In this document: one piece after another, positions 2,686-33,074 of the stretch
Layout of the letters: every line of letters starts with the position of its first letter
How positions within the stretch are numbered: position 1 is the stretch's first letter
NCBI RefSeq assembly: GCF_024298765.1
Contig: NZ_CP101210.1
From: Escherichia coli
GTDB taxonomy: Bacteria > Pseudomonadota > Gammaproteobacteria > Enterobacterales > Enterobacteriaceae
Strand: one strand, 5' to 3'
Length of the DNA: 64,000 nt
Made by a program: the position numbers and the translations under genes
Notes under the pieces: generated by a model
Database searches by the model: none
Told to the model about the DNA's origin: nothing
What the model saw: only the letters and a program-made list of their open reading frames with translations

Positions 2686-2962
2686 GGTTGTTGTCCTCGT
2701 TGTTCAGTCGTTGCAGCCTGCGCTGTTCCAGTAATTCAATGGCCCGTTTATCCGCGTTACAGGTTTCCAGTGCATCCAGAAGGCGGTCGCCCCATATACC
2801 GAGATTTCCCCATGTGGGAGTGTCAGGGAAGGGGGGAGGCGTTACCGGTATGGTCAGCGTCTGCGGTATAAGCCGGACTGACGGCGCTGGCCGTGGCGCG
2901 TTCTGCGTGCCTGCGCAGCCTGTCAGTAAAACGAGCGTCAGGCAAAGCGTGGGCGCATTCAT
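2672..2962 (-). CDS. o-spanin (LysC/Rz1-like outer-membrane lipoprotein), start at internal Met
   Basis: Signal peptide with lipobox LLTGC; proline-rich; nested out of frame in the 3' part of the i-spanin gene. Confidence 0.6.
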   Translation of the reverse strand: MNAPTLCLTLVLLTGCAGTQNAPRPAPSVRLIPQTLTIPVTPPPFPDTPTWGNLGIWGDRLLDALETCNADKRAIELLEQRRLQRLNNEDNNHAEN

Positions 2963-3230
2963 CTTTTGCAATATCGTTGCGTAGCTGTTCACGTCTTGCC
3001 TCTCCGTCCTGATTGCGTTGCTGATTTTCCACGCGGAGTTGCGCCAGCACCTGCTGCATATCCTGTACCCCGGCGCTAATGATATTCAGGGTGTCGGCGG
3101 TACGTTTCAGGGTGCTGGCCTGCGCTTCGTTTCTGGCGTTCTCCCGGCCCAGCGACCATGACAGACGCATGGATGTTCCCCATGCGGCAATCAGAAGGAA
3201 AGCGACACCCAGCGTGGGCCAGAGCTTCAT
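2823..3230 (-). CDS. i-spanin (LysB/Rz-like), start at internal Met49 of the track ORF
   Basis: ATG at 3230 overlaps the endolysin stop (ATGA); N-terminal TM (LWPTLGVAFLLIAAW) followed by a charged coiled-coil-like region. Confidence 0.6.
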   Translation of the reverse strand: MKLWPTLGVAFLLIAAWGTSMRLSWSLGRENARNEAQASTLKRTADTLNIISAGVQDMQQVLAQLRVENQQRNQDGEARREQLRNDIAKDECAHALPDARFTDRLRRHAERATASAVSPAYTADADHTGNASPLP

Positions 3231-13551: not shown

Positions 13552-16344
13552 CTATCGTGTTCGATGCAATAAACTGATTTTTTTGCGAGCATGTTTAGTG
13601 GTTTCACTGATTCTCTGTGCGTGCTCTGCGTCGCGGATGGCGCGCAGCATGTCAGAAAGTACGGTAACGGGTGTTTTCATGGTGTTCTGGTCTTGCTGAA
13701 GTGTGGATGCCAGGCGTGCGGCGGCTTCAGGGTCTGATGCCTCTAGTTGTTCCAGATAGCTGGCGACCGGGTTATGGCGGATCTCCGTGCTGCTTACGCC
13801 GTGATTACGACTCAGGCGTTGCCAGAGCTGCGTGATTCGGCTGTCCGGGCGGGTATCCTGTTTGCGTACAATTTCAAATCCCTGCGGTGCAATGATGCTG
13901 CCGCCAACGTACAGACTGCCGCCTCGTAACAGGTGCTGCATCTGCTGTTCACCGATATGCAGGCCGAGAGATTCAGCAGACTCCCGCCATTCTTTAGCGA
14001 GTAACTCGTGGTTATCAGGCAAAGGCTGTGGCTGTTTGCGGCTCTGTGTCCAGTTCTGCATTTCATCACTGCTGTTTTTTGCCTGTTTGTCACGCAGCGA
14101 ACGCATCAGTGCCCGGCGTTCGTGCCGTTTCAGTGAGCGCATCCATTCATTCACGTCAACGCCTTCAGGAAGCCGCGGCCACGGTGCTGGCCGTTCTTCC
14201 GGCTGTTCTGTCCCGTTGTTGTCCGTTTCCTGTACACGGGGACAGTTATTGCCACGAGTCCAAGGGGCGGCAGGGCCGCCCTGAAGGTCAAAACCATTTT
14301 CGCGGGCGCTGTCTTCCGTTTCCGGTTTACGTCTTACCAGTTTCCAGTTATCCGGATGCGTGCACACACGGGAGGATTCCCCGATGAGTGGTGACCAGAT
14401 CCCGTAAATCTGTACGCTCTGTTCGCCGTAATCATTCAGCTCATCTGCGAGGTCGTAGGCGGTGCGAATCAGGTAGTCTTTGCGTGGAACAAGTACGCCG
14501 CCCTGTTTTTCAATGTAGGTGGCAAAACACCCGGCATCGGCGGCAGCGAGTACCGCATCCATTGCGTCATCTTTCAGTCGTTGCGGGCCTTCCGGGTTGC
14601 GTGCCATCTGGCTGGCAAGGCGGCGCAGTTCACGCCACACCTGACGGGAGGGGATGCCAAAGAACTGGAACTGGCGGACCCGATGAAGGCGCGCCCAGCC
14701 GATGGCGCGCTCCACACTCTCGGCCATTGATTTTCCGGTTTCGTGGTCAACGCGTGGCTTGCCCGTTTTCGGGTCGATGCCATCCACGGCGCGGCTGTCC
14801 AGGTTCTTTCCGATGTAGGTCGCGATATAGCTGGTTGGTGTGCCTTTTGAGCCGTCGACATACTCCGCCTTAAAGCGCGGAGTAATATCATTGCCCAGCT
14901 CGTGGCGGTCTTCCTGAATGGCAATATCGCGGGTGATGGCCACGATGCTGTCGATTTCTTCCGGATGAGCAAAGACCATCATATGCCAGTGCACGGTGCC
15001 GTCATGGTGAGGCTCCACCGTGCGGATGCCATACCAGCGAAGACCGTCGCGGTTCAGTTTTTTGCGGACCGCCGCAAAAAACGTGTTAACCAGGTAATCG
15101 CTGGAGTCGCGCATGGTGGCCCCGTTCCATTTGGGATTCGGATGACCGTTCTCTGTTGTGGCGTGGTATTTTGACGGGCAGGTGACAGTCAGAAACACCG
15201 CTTTGTCGCCACGGGCTTCGGCCAGAAGTTCCAGCCCCTTCATGGTGGCCATCATTTCTGCCTTACGGTGAACCGGGTTACTTACTCCCGCGTAATACAC
15301 CGTCTCGAGATCAATCGTGAACCCGTCTTCGTTTTCCAGCATGAAACTTTTCAGGAAATCGCGTGTTTTCTCGCGCTGTGCGCGAAACTCGCTTAACGCG
15401 TCCTGGCTCAAATAGGGCGATGTTTTTCTGGAAACCAGACAGGCGGCGCGGAGTTGTTCTTCTCTCCACTCGCAACGTAACAGCCACAGTTTGCGTTTCC
15501 ACCATTCCGCACAGGTCAGGCGAAGGATTGCGCCCGGCAGCAGTTCTGTGTCCGGTTCGTTCCTCCGGTCTTTGTCTGTTGTCAGTGCGTCATAATGCGG
15601 AGGCATGGCGTGCAAGTGTAACGCCATGCGGGCCAGCATCTGATACGCCTTCAGCGTTACATCCATGGTCAGCTCGCCATCGGTCGCGCCAAAACCATCG
15701 CAGAGTTTTTCGAAGGTGCTGCTGAACATCGCCGCCGTCATGGTGGCCAGCGTCTGTATCTGGTGTTTGTTGAGTTGCGGCAGGTAAAGCAAATCGTCCA
15801 GGCGTTCACGTCCGGCAAGGGACCGATAACCCGGTGTCAGCCAACGGCTGTCGGTGCGGTCCAGACGTACGAATATTTTGCGCAGGGTTCCGCGCGCGTA
15901 GCGTTCAGCCTGCCAGCTCTTTTTGCCTTTCTGACGATCGGATTCCTGTTTTTTGCGCAGGAAAGAGAGGTGGCGGCTCAGAGGTTCACGCAGATAAACG
16001 GGAAGCACCTTCAGTGTGGCAAAAGCACGGGCCACCGGGTCTTGTTCTGTTGCCTGACGCTTGCTGATGATGCTTTGTGCCAGCTTTTCACGCTGTCCGG
16101 CTTCCTCAAGGGATGCCATGAGTTTTTTACCCACGGTGGATTGTGCGAAAAAGGCTTCCTCCTTCGCTTCCTGTTCTTTCCGGGCCTTTTTGTCCGCCTC
16201 AAGGTAGTAACGGATGGCGCGTTGCAGCTCGGTTTCAGTTTCCTGCCTGCGCTCCGTAAATCTGTCCGGATCAATGGCTGGCCGTGGTTCATTCCAGCTC
16301 CATGCAAACTCACTCATGGCTGGTATCCCGTCACGCGCTGCCAC
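13552..16344 (-). CDS. replication initiation endonuclease (P2 gpA-like, rolling-circle HUH type)
   Basis: 930 aa with HWHMMVFAH HUH-type motif; position between early genes and cargo as P2 A. Confidence 0.8.
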   Translation of the reverse strand: MAARDGIPAMSEFAWSWNEPRPAIDPDRFTERRQETETELQRAIRYYLEADKKARKEQEAKEEAFFAQSTVGKKLMASLEEAGQREKLAQSIISKRQATEQDPVARAFATLKVLPVYLREPLSRHLSFLRKKQESDRQKGKKSWQAERYARGTLRKIFVRLDRTDSRWLTPGYRSLAGRERLDDLLYLPQLNKHQIQTLATMTAAMFSSTFEKLCDGFGATDGELTMDVTLKAYQMLARMALHLHAMPPHYDALTTDKDRRNEPDTELLPGAILRLTCAEWWKRKLWLLRCEWREEQLRAACLVSRKTSPYLSQDALSEFRAQREKTRDFLKSFMLENEDGFTIDLETVYYAGVSNPVHRKAEMMATMKGLELLAEARGDKAVFLTVTCPSKYHATTENGHPNPKWNGATMRDSSDYLVNTFFAAVRKKLNRDGLRWYGIRTVEPHHDGTVHWHMMVFAHPEEIDSIVAITRDIAIQEDRHELGNDITPRFKAEYVDGSKGTPTSYIATYIGKNLDSRAVDGIDPKTGKPRVDHETGKSMAESVERAIGWARLHRVRQFQFFGIPSRQVWRELRRLASQMARNPEGPQRLKDDAMDAVLAAADAGCFATYIEKQGGVLVPRKDYLIRTAYDLADELNDYGEQSVQIYGIWSPLIGESSRVCTHPDNWKLVRRKPETEDSARENGFDLQGGPAAPWTRGNNCPRVQETDNNGTEQPEERPAPWPRLPEGVDVNEWMRSLKRHERRALMRSLRDKQAKNSSDEMQNWTQSRKQPQPLPDNHELLAKEWRESAESLGLHIGEQQMQHLLRGGSLYVGGSIIAPQGFEIVRKQDTRPDSRITQLWQRLSRNHGVSSTEIRHNPVASYLEQLEASDPEAAARLASTLQQDQNTMKTPVTVLSDMLRAIRDAEHAQRISETTKHARKKISLLHRTR

Positions 16345-16703
16345 TCCTGCGAGAAGAGGGTGGAAAGGCGGTTAAATTCAGCGGTGTATTCACTCAGCGA
16401 GGCACACCCGCCAGCAGTGTGATGCGCCAGCATTGCCGCAAATACGGAGGTCGGGGAGTCGTAATACGCCAGCAGTGATTCGCCATGCGGTGTCAGGCAG
16501 CGCAACGCCAGCCCGTGTGGTGTTAAGTCCACGCGGTAGCAGTCGTCTACTGTGAAATAAAGGGTGTCTGCATTCTCCGGTTTTGTAGTGCGTGCTCTGT
16601 TGTCACGACTACGGATGTAGAGATCAAATAATCCCTGAAGAACGGGAGCCAGACGGGTGTCCTGTGTGCGCACCCATCTTGTGAAGTCATGAGCGTCAAT
16701 CAT
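16314..16703 (-). CDS. hypothetical phage early protein
   Basis: 129-aa ORF immediately upstream of A on the same strand, overlapping its start. Confidence 0.5.
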   Translation of the reverse strand: MIDAHDFTRWVRTQDTRLAPVLQGLFDLYIRSRDNRARTTKPENADTLYFTVDDCYRVDLTPHGLALRCLTPHGESLLAYYDSPTSVFAAMLAHHTAGGCASLSEYTAEFNRLSTLFSQEWQRVTGYQP

Positions 16704-16811
16704 GCTGCAATTCTCTCTACTAAGGATGTGCGAAGGCTTCCTGCCAAAAAACTCAGAAGCGGTCGGTTACAGGAATTGGCGTTCTACGAGTAGTTATTGC
16801 TGGCTTGAGGT

Positions 16812-17030
16812 TCATTTCTGTTTAATTCCGTGCATGCTGTAGAAGAAATCAAAAGTGCTATCTATGCGTATCATGAGCTCACGCTGTATCGCTTCTGGTG
16901 TTTCTGGTTCACCTGGCGAGCCAACTCCCGCGAAGAAATCACCGATCTCGCTTTTAATAAGTGCCTTTAGCGTTGCTGAGGAATTCAGGTGTGTGCGGTG
17001 ATGTTTGCGAGTGATTCTTCTCCTGCTCAT
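16812..17030 (-). CDS. hypothetical phage early protein
   Basis: 72-aa ORF in the early operon; overlaps the upstream ORF stop by 4 nt. Confidence 0.45.
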   Translation of the reverse strand: MSRRRITRKHHRTHLNSSATLKALIKSEIGDFFAGVGSPGEPETPEAIQRELMIRIDSTFDFFYSMHGIKQK

Positions 17031-17230
17031 TTGCGTGGATCCTGTACCTGTCGGATAAGATTCACCCGCGCCACATTAGTGGCGCAGAAGTAAGTACCGT
17101 CAGTGAGATAGATGTGGTGTGCATCCTTTTCTGAGCGGTGTTTGTCGATTGTGGTAATCAGGCGTTCGTCGACTTCGTATTCACGTCCTCTGGAAGTGAA
17201 ACGAACGACAGGAAAATGCTTAATTGCCAT
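17027..17230 (-). CDS. hypothetical phage early protein
   Basis: 67-aa ORF in the early operon. Confidence 0.5.
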   Translation of the reverse strand: MAIKHFPVVRFTSRGREYEVDERLITTIDKHRSEKDAHHIYLTDGTYFCATNVARVNLIRQVQDPRK

Positions 17231-17317
17231 TACACCTCCTGGGCGTGTGCGAATACCTCCGCGAATGCGGATTGTTTTTACATTTTCTTATTTAACCTAG
17301 GGTTTTTATTTGCGCTG

Positions 17318-17431
17318 TTATTCGCCAGTGAAAAAGCGGTCAATCTTTTTTACTGAACGAATAATTCGCATAATCCCAATGGCGCAGACCACCGAAATAA
17401 TCAGAACAAGCCATGAGATAAATATACTCAT
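17318..17431 (-). CDS. small hydrophobic membrane peptide (37 aa)
   Basis: ATG at 17431 overlaps the stop of the upstream ORF (ATGA); MSIFISWLVLIISVVCAIGIMRIIRSVKKIDRFFTGE is a single TM helix with a basic tail. Confidence 0.35.
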   Translation of the reverse strand: MSIFISWLVLIISVVCAIGIMRIIRSVKKIDRFFTGE

Positions 17432-17670
17432 GCAATATTCCCCAGCTTATACGGTTCAATATGCTCCCCGCATTCTGCGGCACAGATCAGCTCGGAAAGT
17501 TCGTTAAGTGCATCCAGATCATCAGCGTAAAAAGCCACGTCATACAGACTCCGGATTGCCCTGGTTAATGAGTCACGGGCTGCACGTTCAGCATGAGTAC
17601 CTGATGCACTTAAGCGAAAATAAAAACGCTCAAGTGCTTTGTTTATGAGAGTCTTATATTCTTTGCCCAT
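17428..17670 (-). CDS. hypothetical phage early protein
   Basis: 80-aa ORF in the early operon. Confidence 0.5.
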   Translation of the reverse strand: MGKEYKTLINKALERFYFRLSASGTHAERAARDSLTRAIRSLYDVAFYADDLDALNELSELICAAECGEHIEPYKLGNIA

Positions 17671-17682
17671 CGCAACGCCCTT

Positions 17683-17959
17683 TAATCTGCTTTCTGAATT
17701 TCAGCTTCTGAATCCATGCAGATAATTTCGATATAGGGTTCATCGCCATTAACCTGACGAGCTTTTTCAGCTTCGTTAATTATTTCGCGAACGGTCTGGT
17801 ACGGAAGTTCTACTGTCAGGCGCGTACCGTTCAGATAAACGTAGGTAGCTGCATTTTTTCAGATGGAACTACTCCGTCAATAGCTGATGCGCGTAATAAC
17901 AGTTCACCGCGAAAATCAATAAAGCGGATAAATACACCTTGTGCATGGTCTTTAGTCAT
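17683..17959 (-). pseudogene. small early gene (about 92 aa if repaired) interrupted by a 1-nt frameshift in an A6/T6 run
   Basis: ATG at about 17959 gives 41 codons then stop; an out-of-frame continuation with no start codon runs to TAA at about 17683; adding one A in the homopolymer near 17854-17859 joins them. Confidence 0.4.
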
Positions 17960-17969
17960 AAAGCACCTG

Positions 17970-18320
17970 TTATAAATCAGCCTGTTTAATAAAACTTTGC
18001 CCGCGAAGCAAACGATCGACTGTGCGCAGTGCTTCGTACAATGTAAAATCCTGCCCGAACTGATTATCGCCGTTGCTTAATGCAAAAATGCGGTTTCCGG
18101 TAAACGGATTGCGTGAGCATCTGTGAACCACTATTCCAGCTTTCTCAATCAGCCAGGTGTGTTCGCCGATTTGTTTTACAGCGTGCCCATCTGGTGTTGC
18201 GTGCGTCTCGTTCAGGTTATAGCGATTGTTACTACGTGATGCACTGGTAGCGACGTGGTGTATATGGCGTTCTACGCCATTACGAAATTTGGAGTATGGA
18301 TTATTAGCGTGTTTTTTCAT
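17970..18320 (-). CDS. hypothetical phage early protein
   Basis: 116-aa ORF in the early operon downstream of the cox-like gene. Confidence 0.5.
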   Translation of the reverse strand: MKKHANNPYSKFRNGVERHIHHVATSASRSNNRYNLNETHATPDGHAVKQIGEHTWLIEKAGIVVHRCSRNPFTGNRIFALSNGDNQFGQDFTLYEALRTVDRLLRGQSFIKQADL

Positions 18321-18341
18321 GATGATGCTCTGTTCATTGTT

Positions 18342-18545
18342 TTAGCTGTTAGCCAAAGCGTCTTTTAACATCGCCACAAGGTTTACTTCAGGCTTTTCCA
18401 TTTTGGCACGTTTGGGGCGGATAATAATTCGACCGTCAGCCAACATCTTTTTGCATGTATTAAGAGGGATACCTGTTATCTCTGCATATTTCTGCAGGGA
18501 TACATAGGGGGCATTCACATTGATATTGATGGTTATACCTGACAT
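18342..18545 (-). CDS. Cox-like small DNA-binding protein (excisionase/early regulator)
   Basis: 67 aa; YVSLQKYAEITGIPLNTCKKMLADGRI resembles the Cox-type helix-turn-helix pattern; position in the early operon. Confidence 0.55.
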   Translation of the reverse strand: MSGITININVNAPYVSLQKYAEITGIPLNTCKKMLADGRIIIRPKRAKMEKPEVNLVAMLKDALANS

Positions 18546-18561
18546 CCCACTAGCCTCCTGA

Positions 18562-18768
18562 TCAGGAAGATTTGTTTTGTTCTTTCTGGGTTAGCTCTAG
18601 GCCGCGAAGGAAGATCATGCGCGCCATGTTAGAGGATGAGCGTTGTTCTTTAGTTGCCATTTCATCAATGACGGCTCGCTCTTCGAGGGACAGCCGAAGT
18701 GCCAGTCTTGGACCTGTGGCGGTGTTACGCGGAATGCGTGATCTGGTATCGTGAAGAACTTGTTTCAT
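18562..18768 (-). CDS. small ribbon-helix-helix-like regulator, first gene of the early operon
   Basis: 68 aa with RLALRLSLEERAVIDEMA; divergent from the repressor gene. Confidence 0.45.
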   Translation of the reverse strand: MKQVLHDTRSRIPRNTATGPRLALRLSLEERAVIDEMATKEQRSSSNMARMIFLRGLELTQKEQNKSS

Positions 18769-18843
18769 AGTGGTATATTGTGATCATCTAATAGCTCGTG
18801 AAATCATTTTGGTATCAAAAAAGATACCTGTCAAGGTTTTTGT
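18769..18843. promoter_or_regulatory. lysis-lysogeny switch region with divergent early and repressor promoters
   Basis: 75-bp AT-rich gap between divergently transcribed early operon and repressor gene, as in P2/186. Confidence 0.5.
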
Positions 18844-19248
18844 ATGAAAAATGATATTGGTCAGCGGTTGCGTGAGGAAAGGGAAAGATTGGGGCTTAGT
18901 CAAGTTGCTATGAGCGAAATTGGTGGAGTCAAAAAGCTAACTCAGCTTAGATATGAGAAAGGAGATAGCTTTCCTGATGCTGCGTATTTGGCAGCGCTGT
19001 CTCGTTTTGGCCTTGATGTTCAGTATGTTGTGTTGGGAATTCACTCACCTGAAACTTATAACGATGATGAGCAGGAGTTGATTACTCGCTTTCGAGCAGC
19101 TTCGTTAGATGTAAAAAACGCGGTGATCGGGGCTTTAAAAAGTGCGGGCAGTGAAAAGGAAACTCAGCCATCAGGGCGTGAGTTAAATATTTCTGGTGGT
19201 AATAACCGTATCGCTGGTCGTGACTATAACGAAACTAAGGGTAGGTGA
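18844..19248 (+). CDS. immunity repressor (CI/C-like, HTH XRE family)
   Basis: 134 aa; N-terminal LREERERLGLSQVAMSEIGGVKKLTQLRYEKG helix-turn-helix; divergent from the early operon. Confidence 0.75.
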   Translation: MKNDIGQRLREERERLGLSQVAMSEIGGVKKLTQLRYEKGDSFPDAAYLAALSRFGLDVQYVVLGIHSPETYNDDEQELITRFRAASLDVKNAVIGALKSAGSEKETQPSGRELNISGGNNRIAGRDYNETKGR

Positions 19249-19263
19249 TAGTAGGGAGGTGAC

Positions 19264-19914
19264 ATGGCCGTCAACTCAAACGGTTCAAACAATCGCGTTG
19301 CTGGGCGTGATTTTCACGAAAAGAATATTCAGATAGAGCGATATGATGGTTCTCATACCGTCAATATCGCAATCCCTTCGAATAATGATGATGACGCTCG
19401 CCCTTTGCTTAAGGCACAGCGTAAGGAGCTAAATAGCTTGGTTGCTGCTATTGCAGAAGCTAGCAATACTGAAGCGTTTATTATTTGGCAAAAAGTACAT
19501 GCGGAGATTGGTGTAGCTGGTATTGATGATATGACAATAAATCAATATAAAACAGCGGAGAGTTTTCTGCATGCAATGCTTGAGCGATGTAAAGATCATG
19601 ATGCCTGTAAGACTCTTGTAAGTTTATTACTACGTAACAGTGAAGACTGTGGACTTCGACAAAAACTTCTGCGGTATTGCCATATCAATTTCGGTACAGG
19701 ACGTTTAAACGATCTTACTCGTTCTCAGTTACAGTCTGCATTGTCGTGGTTAGAGCAACAATCGGTATCAAGCCACACAGAGAATTCGACCTTACCAGAA
19801 GTCCGCCTTCGTGCTTCAGAATTAATCCGATTTTATCCAAAAGAAATAATATTCTTTATCTGCGTAGGGGTTTTGGTAGGCGGAGCCATTTCTAGGATGT
19901 TTTTTAATTTGTAA
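19264..19914 (+). CDS. moron protein with C-terminal membrane anchor, unknown function
   Basis: 216 aa; GGGAGG 6 nt before ATG; AT-rich; C-terminal TM IIFFICVGVLVGGAI; lies between repressor and integrase. Confidence 0.55.
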   Translation: MAVNSNGSNNRVAGRDFHEKNIQIERYDGSHTVNIAIPSNNDDDARPLLKAQRKELNSLVAAIAEASNTEAFIIWQKVHAEIGVAGIDDMTINQYKTAESFLHAMLERCKDHDACKTLVSLLLRNSEDCGLRQKLLRYCHINFGTGRLNDLTRSQLQSALSWLEQQSVSSHTENSTLPEVRLRASELIRFYPKEIIFFICVGVLVGGAISRMFFNL

Positions 19915-19943
19915 TCTTACTTGAGCTAAATTGAGGCAATGAC

Positions 19944-20291
19944 ATGAAAGTAAAAAAGGTTCAACTATTAGTTGCTTTTTTATCTATGTTTTCTTTTTCC
20001 GCCGTCGCAATGCCTTTTAAAACTATTGAACGTGAGAGTTTCAATGGAGTATGGCCATTTAATACAGATGAGGTTCAATTGCAGTGTCTTGATGGTAATC
20101 CTTATGTGATGAATTTTGACGATAATAAGTTATATGCGCTTACAGGTTTGGCTCGAATAAAAGGTAAAACATTTGGTGCGTTACCGTTAGATAACAATAA
20201 TCCATTTTGGCTAGATAATGATGCCGCCCCTGGGTTAAAAAAGAATCTGGGGGACGTCACTAAGGCTGCATTTGATTTATGTGATAAGTAA
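19944..20291 (+). CDS. secreted/periplasmic moron protein, unknown function
   Basis: 115 aa with signal peptide MKVKKVQLLVAFLSMFSFSAVA and two cysteines; AT-rich. Confidence 0.55.
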   Translation: MKVKKVQLLVAFLSMFSFSAVAMPFKTIERESFNGVWPFNTDEVQLQCLDGNPYVMNFDDNKLYALTGLARIKGKTFGALPLDNNNPFWLDNDAAPGLKKNLGDVTKAAFDLCDK

Positions 20292-20296
20292 CAAAG

Positions 20297-21298
20297 ATGT
20301 CGGTTCGTAAGATTCCATCAGGTAAATGGCTTTGCGAATGTTATCCCTACGGAGCATCGGGAAAACGCATTCGTAAACAGTTTGCGACAAAAAGTGAGGC
20401 GCTCTCTTATGAGCGCCGTTTAATGAATAGTAGAGTTGGAGACGAGTTTCAAGATGGTTCTGGTCCTCGTCTTTCTGAGTTGATTGCTCGTTGGTTTGAG
20501 ATGTACGGCAAAACCTTGTCCTCTGGTGCAGAGCGCAAAGTCAAACTTGAGGCGATTTGTTCTAGGCTGGGAGATCCATTTGCTTCTCAGTTTGACAAAA
20601 ATATGTTTGCTACTTATCGGGAAAGAAGGCTATCAGGAGAATGGAATCCCAAGGGGAAGAAAAAACTTAGTGAAGCAACCGTTAATCGCGAGCAGTCATA
20701 TCTACATGCTGTTTTTGCCGAACTGAAGCGCCTTGGGGAGTGGTCTGGTGAAAACCCCCTGACTGGAATTCGCAAGTTTCGTGAGGAAGAAAAGGAGCTG
20801 GCGTTTCTGTATGTAGATGAGATTGAACGCCTTTTGATTGCGTGTGATGAGTCACGGAATAAAGATTTGGGGGTTGTTGTCCGTATTGGGCTTGCGACTG
20901 GTGCTCGGTGGAGTGAAGCAGAAGGATTAAAGCAATCTCAAGTACTGCCCGGTCGAATCACATTTGTTAAAACTAAAGGAAAGAAGAACCGCACTGTACC
21001 GATTTCACCTCAATTGCAGGCTATGCTTCCTAAAAAACGAGGAGCGCTATTTTCACCATGTTATGAGGCTTTTGACGCTGCAATTAAGAGAGCGAAGATA
21101 GAGCTCCCTGATGGGCAATTAACTCATGTGCTACGTCACACGTTTGCTAGTCATTTTATGATGCGGGGCGGAAATATTCTTGTGTTGCAAAAAATACTGG
21201 GGCATAGCGATATAAAAATGACTATGCGTTATGCGCATTTTGCTCCGGGTCATTTAGAGGCTGCTGTTGAATTAAACCCTTTTGACAATAGAGGGTAA
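20297..21298 (+). CDS. int: tyrosine-type site-specific integrase
   Basis: 333 aa; C-terminal HVLRHTFASH...ILGHSDIKMTMRYAH catalytic R-H-R-Y pattern; next to the att/tRNA fragment. Confidence 0.9.
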   Translation: MSVRKIPSGKWLCECYPYGASGKRIRKQFATKSEALSYERRLMNSRVGDEFQDGSGPRLSELIARWFEMYGKTLSSGAERKVKLEAICSRLGDPFASQFDKNMFATYRERRLSGEWNPKGKKKLSEATVNREQSYLHAVFAELKRLGEWSGENPLTGIRKFREEEKELAFLYVDEIERLLIACDESRNKDLGVVVRIGLATGARWSEAEGLKQSQVLPGRITFVKTKGKKNRTVPISPQLQAMLPKKRGALFSPCYEAFDAAIKRAKIELPDGQLTHVLRHTFASHFMMRGGNILVLQKILGHSDIKMTMRYAHFAPGHLEAAVELNPFDNRG

Positions 21299-21404
21299 AA
21301 AGTGGCGATAAAAAGTGACAATAGATTCAAATGGCGTCGTATAGAGCTATTTGCAAAGTTAATAAAATCATAAGGTTATGATTTATAAATGGTGGTTGAT
21401 AGTT

Positions 21405-21459
21405 TTTAAAATCCCTCGGCGTTCGCGCTGTGCGGGTTCAAGTCCCGCTCCGGGTACCA
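21405..21459 (+). other. prophage attachment-site core: 55-nt duplicate of the tRNA-Leu (leuZ-type, anticodon TAA) 3' end, not an intact tRNA
   Basis: TTTAAAATCCCTCGGCGTTCGCGCTGTGCGGGTTCAAGTCCCGCTCCGGGTACCA matches the remembered 3' portion of E. coli leuZ; the upstream 5' half does not fold as an acceptor stem. Confidence 0.7.
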
Positions 21460-21502
21460 TGGGAAAGATAAGAATAAAATCAAAGCAATAAGCAGTGTCG
21501 TG

Positions 21503-21527
21503 AAACCACCTTCGGGTGGTTTTTTTG
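21503..21527 (+). terminator. rho-independent terminator (native tRNA operon terminator)
   Basis: ACCACC-TTCG-GGTGGT hairpin followed by a T7 run. Confidence 0.65.
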
Positions 21528-21654
21528 TGCCTGCAACTTGTCGTTACACCCTCCTTAATTTTTAATCACCGGCAAAGCCACTCAAAAAGTATCTCTGATA
21601 CGGACCGGCATGTAAGATAGGTGCTGGCGAGTTGAGATCCACAAGGAAAAGCGT

Positions 21655-22320
21655 ATGAAAACGGGACCGTTAAACGAAAGTGAGTTGGAATGGCTGGACG
21701 ATATTCTGACCAAATACAACACTGACCACGCCATTCTTGATGTGGCGGAGCTGGACGGTTTATTGACGGCGGTGTTGAGTTCTCCGCAAGAGATTGAACC
21801 GGCACAGTGGCTGGTTGCCGTGTGGGGTGGGGCTGACTATGTGCCGCGCTGGGCGTCAGAGAAAGAGATGACGCGCTTTATGAACCTGGCTTTTCAACAT
21901 ATGGCCGATACCGCAGAGCGTCTGAACGAATTCCCGGAGCAGTTTGAGCCGTTATTCGGCTTGCGAGAAGTCGATGGCAGCGAGCTGACGATTGTTGAGG
22001 AGTGGTGCTTTGGCTATATGCGGGGCGTGGCACTTTCTGACTGGTCAACGTTGCCCGATTCGTTAAAACCAGCGCTGGGGGCGATTGCGCTGCACGGTAC
22101 TGAGGAAAACTTCGAGCGGGTTGAGAAGATGTCGCCAGAAGCGTTTGAAGAGAGCGTAGATGCCATTCGACTGGCGGCGCTTGATTTACATGCATACTGG
22201 ATGGCGCATCCGCAGGAAAAAGCTGTTCAGCAACCGATCAAAGCAGAAGAGAAACCGGGTCGTAACGATCCTTGCCCGTGCGGCAGTGGTAAGAAATTTA
22301 AGCAGTGCTGCCTGCATTAA
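21655..22320 (+). CDS. yecA: YecA (UPF0149 family protein with C-terminal SEC-C zinc motif)
   Basis: 221 aa ending [13 protein letters not shown]; conserved gene order. Confidence 0.85.
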
Positions 22321-28192: not shown

Positions 28193-29707
28193 ATGCAACA
28201 GTCTACCCCGTATCTCTCATTTCGCGGCATCGGTAAAACGTTTCCCGGCGTTAAGGCGCTGACGGATATTAGTTTTGACTGCTATGCCGGTCAGGTTCAT
28301 GCGTTGATGGGTGAAAATGGCGCAGGAAAATCAACTCTCTTAAAAATCCTCAGCGGAAACTATGCGCCAACCACGGGTTCTGTAGTGATTAATGGGCAGG
28401 AAATGTCCTTTTCCGACACGACCGCAGCACTTAACGCGGGGGTGGCGATTATTTACCAGGAGCTGCATCTCGTGCCGGAAATGACCGTCGCGGAAAACAT
28501 CTATCTCGGCCAGCTGCCGCATAAAGGCGGCATTGTCAATCGCTCATTGCTGAATTATGAGGCGGGTTTACAACTTAAACATCTTGGTATGGATATTGAC
28601 CCGGACACGCCGCTGAAATATCTCTCCATTGGTCAGTGGCAGATGGTTGAAATTGCCAAAGCCCTGGCGCGTAATGCCAAAATTATCGCCTTTGATGAGC
28701 CAACCAGCTCCCTCTCTGCCCGTGAAATCGACAATCTTTTCCGCGTTATTCGTGAACTGCGAAAAGAGGGGCGGGTGATCTTATACGTTTCTCACCGTAT
28801 GGAAGAAATATTTGCCCTCAGCGATGCCATCACTGTCTTTAAAGATGGACGTTATGTCAAAACCTTTACCGATATGCAGCAGGTTGACCACGACGCCCTG
28901 GTGCAGGCGATGGTCGGGCGCGACATCGGCGATATCTACGGCTGGCAACCGCGTAGTTATGGCGAGGAGCGGCTGCGTCTTGATGCTGTGAAAGCACCAG
29001 GCGTACGTACGCCAATAAGTCTGGCGGTTCGCAGTGGTGAAATTGTCGGTCTGTTTGGTCTGGTCGGGGCAGGGCGTAGCGAATTAATGAAAGGCATGTT
29101 TGGCGGGACGCAAATCACCGCCGGTCAGGTTTATATCGACCAACAGCCGATCGATATTCGTAAACCGAGCCACGCCATTGCCGCAGGCATGATGCTCTGC
29201 CCGGAAGATCGCAAAGCGGAAGGCATTATTCCCGTGCACTCCGTTCGCGACAATATCAACATCAGTGCCAGACGTACACATGTGCTCGGCGGTTGTGTAA
29301 TCAACAACGGTTGGGAAGAAAACAATGCCGATCACCACATTCGTTCGCTCAACATCAAAACGCCGGGCGCTGATCAACTGATCATGAATCTCTCAGGCGG
29401 AAATCAGCAAAAAGCCATTCTGGGCCGCTGGTTATCGGAAGAGATGAAGGTCATTTTGCTGGATGAACCTACGCGCGGCATTGATGTTGGTGCTAAGCAC
29501 GAAATATATAACGTAATTTATGCGCTGGCGGCGCAGGGTGTGGCGGTGCTGTTTGCCTCCAGCGACTTACCTGAAGTCCTCGGCGTTGCCGACCGGATTG
29601 TGGTGATGCGGGAAGGCGAAATCGCCGGTGAATTGTTACACGAGCAGGCAGATGAGCGTCAGGCACTGAGCCTTGCGATGCCTAAAGTCAGCCAGGCAGT
29701 TGCCTGA
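28193..29707 (+). CDS. araG: L-arabinose ABC transporter ATP-binding protein
   Basis: Two ABC cassettes (GENGAGKST Walker A, LSGGNQQK signature); start [10 protein letters not shown]. Confidence 0.9.
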
Positions 29708-29721
29708 GTAAGGAGAGTATG

Positions 29722-33074
<3,353 letters not shown>

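Follow-up and report, generated by a model that had tools for sequence, protein, structure and literature searches.

A conserved switch region of a P2-like Escherichia coli prophage with a predicted ribbon-helix-helix gene ahead of a Cox-like gene

The two early genes and their conservation

We analyzed a 64,000-nucleotide (nt) stretch of Escherichia coli DNA (contig NZ_CP101210.1 of assembly GCF_024298765.1, referred to at its full length as the window), the left 21.4 kb of which is the right part of a P2-like prophage in the chromosome, and we concentrated on the genetic switch of this prophage. An earlier account drawn from the sequence alone (the sequence-only reading) had placed a 68-amino-acid ribbon-helix-helix (RHH)-like protein first and a 67-amino-acid Cox-like helix-turn-helix (HTH) protein second in the early operon, divergent from an XRE-type repressor, and the positions of the open reading frames (ORFs), the profile searches and the predicted structures all agree with that arrangement. 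The first early gene, which encodes the 68-amino-acid RHH protein from an ATG start, lies at 18562-18768 on the minus strand. It is followed on the same strand, at 18342-18545, by the Cox-like gene, also with an ATG start, whose 67-amino-acid winged-helix product is a predicted excisionase (recombination directionality factor). On the plus strand, at 18844-19248, is the gene for the immunity repressor, a short XRE-type HTH protein of 134 amino acids and the first gene of the lysogenic operon. The DNA between the RHH and XRE genes (18769-18843) measures exactly 75 bp, the figure given in the sequence-only reading. The interval which that reading singled out, 18562-18843, consists of the RHH gene and this intergenic DNA, and the Cox-like gene is just outside it.

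Profile and structure searches of both small proteins, named as a check in the sequence-only reading, returned an RHH fold for the first and a Cox/excisionase winged helix for the second. The 68-amino-acid protein matched phrog_3431, "Arc-like repressor" (1.9e-28). Its AlphaFold model, built from a 74-sequence alignment, had a predicted local distance difference test score (pLDDT) of 87 and consisted of an extended segment at about residues 21-27, a helix at 28-41 and a second helix at 45-67; the two helices were modeled with confidence, and the β-strand itself was not modeled in the monomer. The top approximately 30 Foldseek matches to this model were all RHH proteins, with probabilities up to 0.98 and weak E-values; they included TacA, CdbA, ORF56, Arc, CopG and AmrZ, with AtaR and ParD also present, and some of these structures (Arc, CopG, AmrZ) are DNA bound. 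The protein is thus predicted to have the strand-helix-helix fold of the RHH (Arc/MetJ/CopG) superfamily. A search of Pfam with the window protein gave nothing at E ≤ 0.1, and NCBIfam likewise gave nothing usable. Among its 74 relatives, 20 matched RHH_5 and 7 a NikA-like family, and the family profile matched HP0222 (8.5e-4) and CopG (0.03-0.08) in the PDB. The Pfam Arc family was matched neither by the 68-amino-acid protein nor by any of the 74 relatives, and "Arc-like" is a generic label here; relatives are named "Arc-like" or "Arc family" in PHROGs and UniRef, and "CopG family" is also used. An N-terminal arm of 20 residues carries a conserved RSRxP[RK] motif. Among the β-strand residues that should face DNA, R25 hardly varies and S27 is mostly Ser or Thr in relatives, which counts for the proposed role of the protein in the switch.

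The annotation of this locus differs from our assignment. In strain GMM076, the RefSeq pipeline PGAP calls an antisense ORF of 45 amino acids (WP_001673482; 18617-18754, plus strand) and skips the RHH ORF, and the other top E. coli records carry the same feature names. Across 13 diverged loci, the RHH reading frame was uninterrupted in all 13, while the antisense frame contained one to three stops in most of them and three stops in three lineages. The ratio of nonsynonymous to synonymous substitution rates (dN/dS) was 0.06-0.09 for the RHH frame versus 0.09-0.31 for the antisense frame and was lower for the RHH frame in every informative pair. The two frames share wobble positions, so a shadow ORF would tend to stay open. 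These comparisons indicate that the 45-amino-acid antisense ORF is a shadow ORF. On sequence grounds, both small ORFs are real genes. The leader of the RHH gene contains no Shine-Dalgarno sequence.

A strong AGGAGG Shine-Dalgarno sequence, read from the sequence at 18554-18559 on the minus strand, stands 8 nt upstream of the ATG of the Cox-like gene. Its 67-amino-acid product matched phrog_575, "Cox-like excisionase and repressor" (1.2e-27). HP1 Cox (7e-16) and 186 Apl (3e-9) have their best PHROG match in this same family, and the 67-amino-acid protein is 45% identical to HP2 Cox. By sequence, it belongs to the HP1/HP2/K139 branch and not to that of P2 Cox: the Pfam family Phage_Cox, representing the P2 Cox branch, gave no match, Pfam and NCBIfam searches returned nothing usable, and the alignment with P2 Cox itself was limited to the HTH (hhalign, 90% over 35 columns; PDB profile E of 0.12). 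The AlphaFold model (pLDDT of 79) had Pukovnik Xis and P2 Cox (4lhf) as its best Foldseek matches, both with a probability of 0.99, and RdfS and BldC were also found. Profile and model together point to a small winged-helix/HTH homologue of the characterized Cox and Apl proteins. The first-gene position typical of Cox/Apl is not the one it occupies, since the RHH gene holds the first slot and the Cox-like gene the second. In one relative, in Mixta mediterraneensis (L023, 4182-6349), an insertion of about 1.9 kb splits the Cox-like gene, so that residues 1-52 are matched first and residues 42-67 farther on.

The arrangement is conserved and widespread. A query with the whole 1.4-kb switch found it in 505 of 5426 complete E. 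coli genomes (about 9%). Both small ORFs are conserved in related prophages, a point on which the sequence-only reading depended: in addition to the open RHH frames described above, the Cox-like gene was directly downstream of an RHH relative in all 80 IMG/VR contigs, and a divergent XRE gene was upstream in 77 of the 78 contigs having room upstream. The arrangement was present in Edwardsiella, Dickeya, Enterobacter, Serratia, Citrobacter, Yersinia, Mixta, Erwinia and Salmonella, with RHH identities of 45-76%. All relatives at 45-99% identity, from about 10 enterobacterial genera, kept the XRE / RHH-Cox order, within a recurring layout of integrase, optional cargo, Flk_N-like protein, XRE / RHH, Cox-like. 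Database names place relatives in strains of E. coli O157:H7, Salmonella and Shigella. Among sequenced phages, the RHH gene was carried only by Escherichia phage 520873. A single Cox or Apl protein in first position, which the sequence-only reading had cited for P2, was found there and also in 186, HP1, HP2, Yersinia phage 31.17 and Klebsiella phage 4LV2017, where it is an unannotated ORF.

More-distant members of the RHH family keep the first position, divergent from an XRE repressor gene, in loci without a Cox-like second gene; the gene that follows encodes a Bro-N/Ant protein in the related locus L029 and small unknown proteins in L028 and L030. This persistence beside XRE repressors supports a role of the RHH family in the switch. 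Locus L029 carries this RHH family together with a Phage_CP76 CII gene, which argues that RHH and CII are not equivalent. Additionally, near-identical RHH-Cox pairs (87-100%) occur with three different XRE/operator types, which is consistent with an RHH target outside the immunity-specific DNA.

Predicted promoters, operator and the conserved 35-nt block

We aligned the loci on the RHH start codon; all promoter and start positions given below are predictions. The promoter scan and the alignment placed the -35 element of the early lytic promoter (Pe), TTGACA, at 18829-18834 on the minus strand. At least five of its six bases are kept in almost all of more than 30 diverged loci, including loci with differing operators; variants matching four of six are TTTACA (Dickeya, L011) and TTGATA (L100). 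After a 17-nt spacer, the predicted Pe -10 element, CAAAAT, occupies 18806-18811 (minus strand), with an inferred start near A18799, and at the same spacing related loci have a hexamer of the form 5'-nAnnnT, in which the second base is A and the sixth T. The Pe spacer contains a palindrome, GGTATC-N6-GATACC (18811-18828), the sole perfect copy within the 64-kb window. At the same position, related loci have a palindrome that differs in sequence with each repressor type, and at least nine types were seen; the others include GGTACTC-N4-GAGTACC, AGGAA-N6-TTCCT, ATGAGAA-N6-TTCTCAT, GATCTATAGATC, TGACCA-N6-TGGTCA and GGTATAAATAATTATACC. From the sequence and this comparison, the spacer palindrome is the predicted operator of the XRE repressor. 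A further operator-like site within the Cox-like gene (18456-18473, with an L020 copy in the same codons) most likely reflects the conserved TGIP..T codons; it was absent in other immunity types, and we rejected it.

Directly upstream of the RHH start codon, the alignment revealed a conserved block of 35 nt, tttCACgagctaTTAGatGATCACAATATACCACT (18769-18803, minus strand), which comprises the Pe mRNA leader and the DNA between the two promoters and is the candidate RHH site. In the most diverged pairs, in which the third codon positions of the RHH gene are saturated (35% identity), this block is 78% identical and the adjacent operator segment only 36%; the block is constant across immunity types. 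The Pe leader RNA showed no structure beyond that of shuffled controls (z = 0.55).

The block contains a predicted extended -10 element, TGgTATATT (18771-18779, plus strand), of a repressor promoter (Pc) facing Pe, with an inferred start near A18786; this element is kept in all immunity types compared. It lies 5 nt from the first early ATG, versus 4 nt for the corresponding elements of 186 pL (apl) and HP1 PL (cox). In Dickeya, a cargo insertion moved the RHH-Cox pair by about 1 kb but left the conserved element, together with six initial RHH codons, beside the XRE gene, which fits the element being the repressor promoter. The insert in this locus (L011, 1711-2995), between the switch and the RHH-Cox pair, carries an 89-amino-acid ORF that starts with those six RHH codons (MTQENH) and continues into unrelated sequence and, on the other strand, a gene for 154 amino acids. 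In its displaced position, the RHH gene has acquired a Shine-Dalgarno-like GAGG of its own. Two other promoter assignments were tried and rejected: an alternative Pc with TTGTGA of the block as its -35 element had no -10 element conserved 17-18 nt downstream in other loci, and a promoter for a leaderless RHH mRNA had no usable -35 element.

The predicted Pe and Pc -10 hexamers are 26 bp apart, compared with 49 bp in P2, 51 bp in HP1 and 76 bp in 186, and the predicted transcripts overlap by about 14 nt. Facing promoters with so short a gap and overlapping transcripts could probably not be occupied by RNA polymerase simultaneously. A GATC (Dam) site at 18782-18785, about -4 to -1 of the predicted Pc, is kept in most of the 13 loci compared, though not, for example, in Edwardsiella L010 (GATAC). 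This site may link promoter activity to the methylation state.

Repressor, lysogenic operon and prophage context

The 134-amino-acid repressor matched HTH_31/HTH_3 (HTH_31 at 3.3e-5, below the Pfam cut-off) and phrog_8 (1.8e-14), and no similarity was detected to the longer, 190-amino-acid CI repressors of 186 and HP1. Downstream of it, the lysogenic operon encodes, all on the plus strand, a 216-amino-acid Flk_N-like tail-anchored protein (19264-19914), a DUF2511 protein (19944-20291) and the integrase (Int; 20297-21298), and the gene order is the same in related loci. The last approximately 17 residues of the repressor (SGGNNRIAGRDYNETKGR) and the first approximately 20 of the next protein (MAVNSNGSNNRVAGRDFHEKN) have a common motif, SG-x-NR[VI]AGRD[YF][NH]E (window 19200-19330). 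The same motif was found in L004, L010, L011, L019, L020, L023, L024, L026 and L027, the last of which has two XRE paralogues, both with the motif. The repressor tail motif is kept across immunity types in all repressors examined but two, those of L022 and L028, which are also without an adjacent Flk-like gene; L009 has the tail yet no adjacent Flk-like gene. The motif may mean that the repressor and the Flk-like protein have a common partner, or that the repressor is tethered.

The prophage ends in the attachment (att) region (21299-21459, plus strand), which contains Int arm-type repeats and a 3' fragment of tRNA-Leu. The repeats comprise AAGTGGCGATA at 21300-21310 and three more up to 21397, the first of which fits the arm-site consensus annotated for 186. 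The displaced tRNA-Leu fragment is at about 21411-21459, and in GMM076 an intact tRNA-Leu stands at the opposite prophage end. The att region is the expected site of action of the Cox-like protein, and no Cox sites were identified in the att region of the window. In three related loci, repeats 18 nt apart were seen by the att core, between the integrase stop and the tRNA core: two copies of AACTTATTGA in L022, the near-identical AACTCTTTGA and AACTTATTGA in L024, and two copies of TTAACCT in L026. These are candidate excisionase or integrase-arm sites.

The switch belongs to an apparently intact P2-like (Xuanwuvirus/P88-like) prophage in the tRNA-Leu gene leuZ. The nearest named phage is 520873 (genus Xuanwuvirus, P88 group), with 95% identity in the switch. 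In strain GMM076 the switch is 99.9% identical, and the prophage, of about 36.7 kb, has a full late-gene set and lies between tRNA-Leu (leuZ) and yecA. The remaining genome is P2-like/P88-like, with DUF4761, DUF4754, a replication endonuclease and late genes. The early ORFs scanned encode DUF4761, DUF4754, phrog_3459 and phrog_3237, and no CII-like gene was detected among them. The early gene after DUF4761 (17681-17959, minus strand) encodes 92 amino acids in GMM076, while in the window it is frameshifted and stops after 42 amino acids, and this copy may be a pseudogene. No RNA family was found in an Rfam scan of 16000-22000, and no terminator-like sites were found in the scan that also called promoter sites. 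The GMM076 prophage (L031) also carries a Hok/Gef-family gene (2883-3023) and a ParM/ParR-like pair (29425-30700), unusual cargo for a P2-like phage.

Comparison with known switches and a proposed mechanism

The switch has in common with those of 186 and HP1/HP2 the facing promoters, a repressor operator that overlies the lytic promoter, and a single operon for repressor and integrase. The geometry of 186 and HP1, with the -10 element of the lysogenic promoter 4-5 nt from the first early ATG, is also found here, although the switch here is much more compact. Similarly, the integrase arm repeats fit the 186 consensus, and integration in a tRNA gene is found in HP1, which also uses tRNA-Leu (PMC3448106). 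However, the order in 186 is CI / Apl-CII and that in HP1/HP2 is CI / Cox, while here the RHH gene is first and the Cox homologue second; CII, the 186-type hallmark, was not found among the early ORFs scanned; and the 190-amino-acid CI is replaced by a 134-amino-acid XRE repressor of no detected similarity, with one palindromic operator in the promoter spacer. Neither feature of a 186-type region, a CII gene after Cox/Apl or a CI-type repressor, was found in the ORFs scanned. P2 and P88 share with this prophage the P2-like/P88-like genome, converging Pe and Pc and the lack of a CII gene, none having been detected here among the early ORFs scanned. They differ in having a single Cox gene first and a P2-type C repressor that binds direct repeats, as opposed to the XRE repressor, palindromic operator and two early regulators seen here. 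The sequence-only reading had called the arrangement a hybrid P2/186-style switch. The label fits only in part, since no CII gene was detected among the early ORFs scanned: the geometry does resemble that of 186/HP1, whereas an RHH gene in first position occurs in neither P2 nor 186, the Cox-like protein is of the HP1/HP2 branch, and the repressor is a short XRE protein.

The RHH protein is similar to P22 Arc and Mnt and to CopG in its small size, predicted fold and structural matches. It differs from Arc in having no match to the Pfam Arc family, relatives that match RHH_5 and NikA-like families, and the 20-residue N-terminal arm. Arc and Mnt control the antirepressor region immI and not the primary switch. 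In its proposed role, as the first product of the lytic operon shutting off the repressor promoter, the RHH protein would resemble lambda Cro. The fold of Cro is unrelated, however, and the lambda promoters are back to back, with operators common to Cro and CI, while the candidate RHH target is separate from the repressor operator and not immunity specific. Nilsson et al. (2011) described only P2-type, 186-type and "less common heterogeneous" regulatory regions and mentioned no RHH gene (PMC3448106). The PsP3 gp30 protein, their "singleton" Cox analogue (PMC3448106), was considered as an RHH protein and rejected (hhalign probability of 1%). No description of an RHH-first P2-like switch was found in the literature searched.

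The following mechanism is the one that we favor. In the lysogen, repressor bound at 18811-18828 would block Pe and thereby free Pc, and because its site lies at about +26 to +43 of the Pc transcript, the repressor might in addition restrain its own production. Once Pe is active, the RHH protein would be made first, from the leader without a Shine-Dalgarno sequence, and would act as a dimer or a dimer of dimers. It would bind the conserved inter-promoter block, occlude Pc and probably damp Pe, leading to lytic commitment; shutting off Pc in this way would be the transcriptional job of Cox in P2 and of Apl in 186. The Cox-like protein, well translated from its strong Shine-Dalgarno sequence, would then serve mainly as an excisionase, together with Int, at the att site. 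Thus, the two functions united in Cox/Apl would be divided between the RHH and Cox-like proteins. The Arc operator is 21 bp long, and by this comparison the 26-bp gap is about the size of an operator for an RHH tetramer. Apl uses five to seven direct repeats at 10-11 bp spacing (PMC7498355), and the gap is too short for arrays of Apl/Cox repeats with such spacing, which counts for the RHH protein acting there. Taken as a whole, the reading in which the RHH protein shuts off Pc and the Cox-like protein is mainly an excisionase, in a compact switch with facing promoters, seems to us somewhat likelier to be right than wrong. A full split of the Cox/Apl jobs, in which the RHH protein is a Cro-like off-switch of Pc acting through the immunity-independent 35-nt target and the Cox homologue is a pure excisionase, is a more tentative proposal, to which we would give a little less than an even chance.

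Several observations weigh against this interpretation. Pe, Pc, their starts and the action of the RHH protein are predictions from sequence, and the promoter scan of the window by itself was not enriched (1 site, versus 1.5 expected in shuffled sequence). No convincing RHH-style repeat was found in the 35-nt block; of two candidates, TCACAR directly repeated at a distance of 18 bp and the inverted repeat TAG-N17-CTA, both were weak. Conservation of the block could be explained wholly by the Pc -10 element, the Pe start and initiation without a Shine-Dalgarno sequence, and for lack of such a sequence the RHH protein may be poorly translated. As a test for Cox sites in the switch, we looked for a motif common to it and the att region and found none above shuffled controls; this result counts for the favored mechanism but is weak evidence, because excisionase sites are degenerate. 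Finally, repression of the lysogenic promoter falls to Cox or Apl in every P2-like phage tested (PMC7498355), and repression of Pc may likewise be a task of the Cox-like protein.

The last point leads to the best surviving alternative, in which excision and Pc repression both remain tasks of the Cox-like protein, as in the full dual role of Cox/Apl. The RHH protein would then be an additional, auxiliary regulator; it might, for instance, hold early transcription down by repressing its own promoter, Pe, or control another target in the phage. Beyond the rule just cited, this alternative is favored by the clear homology to HP1/HP2 Cox, by the tight RHH linkage at 80 of 80 loci, and by the expectation that whatever binds in the 26-bp gap influences both promoters. 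However, 26 bp leaves no room for a typical excisionase repeat array (49-76 bp in P2, HP1 and 186), no common att/switch motif exceeded chance, and distant RHH relatives hold the first position by the XRE gene without any Cox-like neighbor. We regard this alternative as unlikely but worth serious consideration.

A pro-lysogenic RHH protein, activating or protecting repressor synthesis at establishment in the manner of CII, would make the pair an analogue of 186 Apl-CII in reversed gene order. Some RHH proteins both activate and repress, AmrZ among them, and no CII gene was found among the early ORFs scanned, which leaves that function without an assigned gene. Against this, the RHH protein does not resemble CII (Phage_CP76), no establishment promoter directed leftward can be seen downstream, and locus L029 carries both families; we consider such a role improbable. 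It is less probable still that the small genes have nothing to do with the switch and make up an accessory module such as a toxin-antitoxin-like or moron cassette. RHH proteins are common as antitoxins, TacA, AtaR and ParD were among the structural matches, and one source calls the 67-amino-acid protein a "predicted HTH domain antitoxin"; however, neither protein is toxin-like in fold, the 67-amino-acid protein matches excisionases and Cox, PADLOC gave no defense-system match, and the genes are directly downstream of a repressor-controlled promoter in every relative. That the 68-amino-acid ORF is no gene, its place being taken by the antisense ORF or a noncoding leader, is hardly credible: the PGAP call and the missing Shine-Dalgarno sequence would fit it, but the frame and dN/dS comparisons, the confident fold prediction with its family matches, and the wobble positions common to both frames, the usual origin of a shadow ORF, all contradict it.

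P2, 186 and HP1 are the reference convergent-promoter switches, and the dual-purpose Cox/Apl proteins are central to that work. The components described here are ordinary, namely an XRE repressor, an RHH protein and an excisionase, and both gene labels already appear in one RefSeq phage record, while the RefSeq pipeline misses the RHH gene and annotates an antisense shadow ORF in its place. The RHH-first layout itself is conserved, widespread and not previously described in the literature searched. If the more tentative proposal of a full split, with the RHH protein as off-switch of Pc, is correct, a heteroimmune relative that superinfects could, through its RHH protein, shut down the Pc of the resident prophage in trans, since the 35-nt target is not immunity specific. 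An unrelated fold in the Cox slot, combined with promoters 26 bp apart, would show how regulatory and recombination roles separate, and it would provide a compact switch for studying promoter occlusion.

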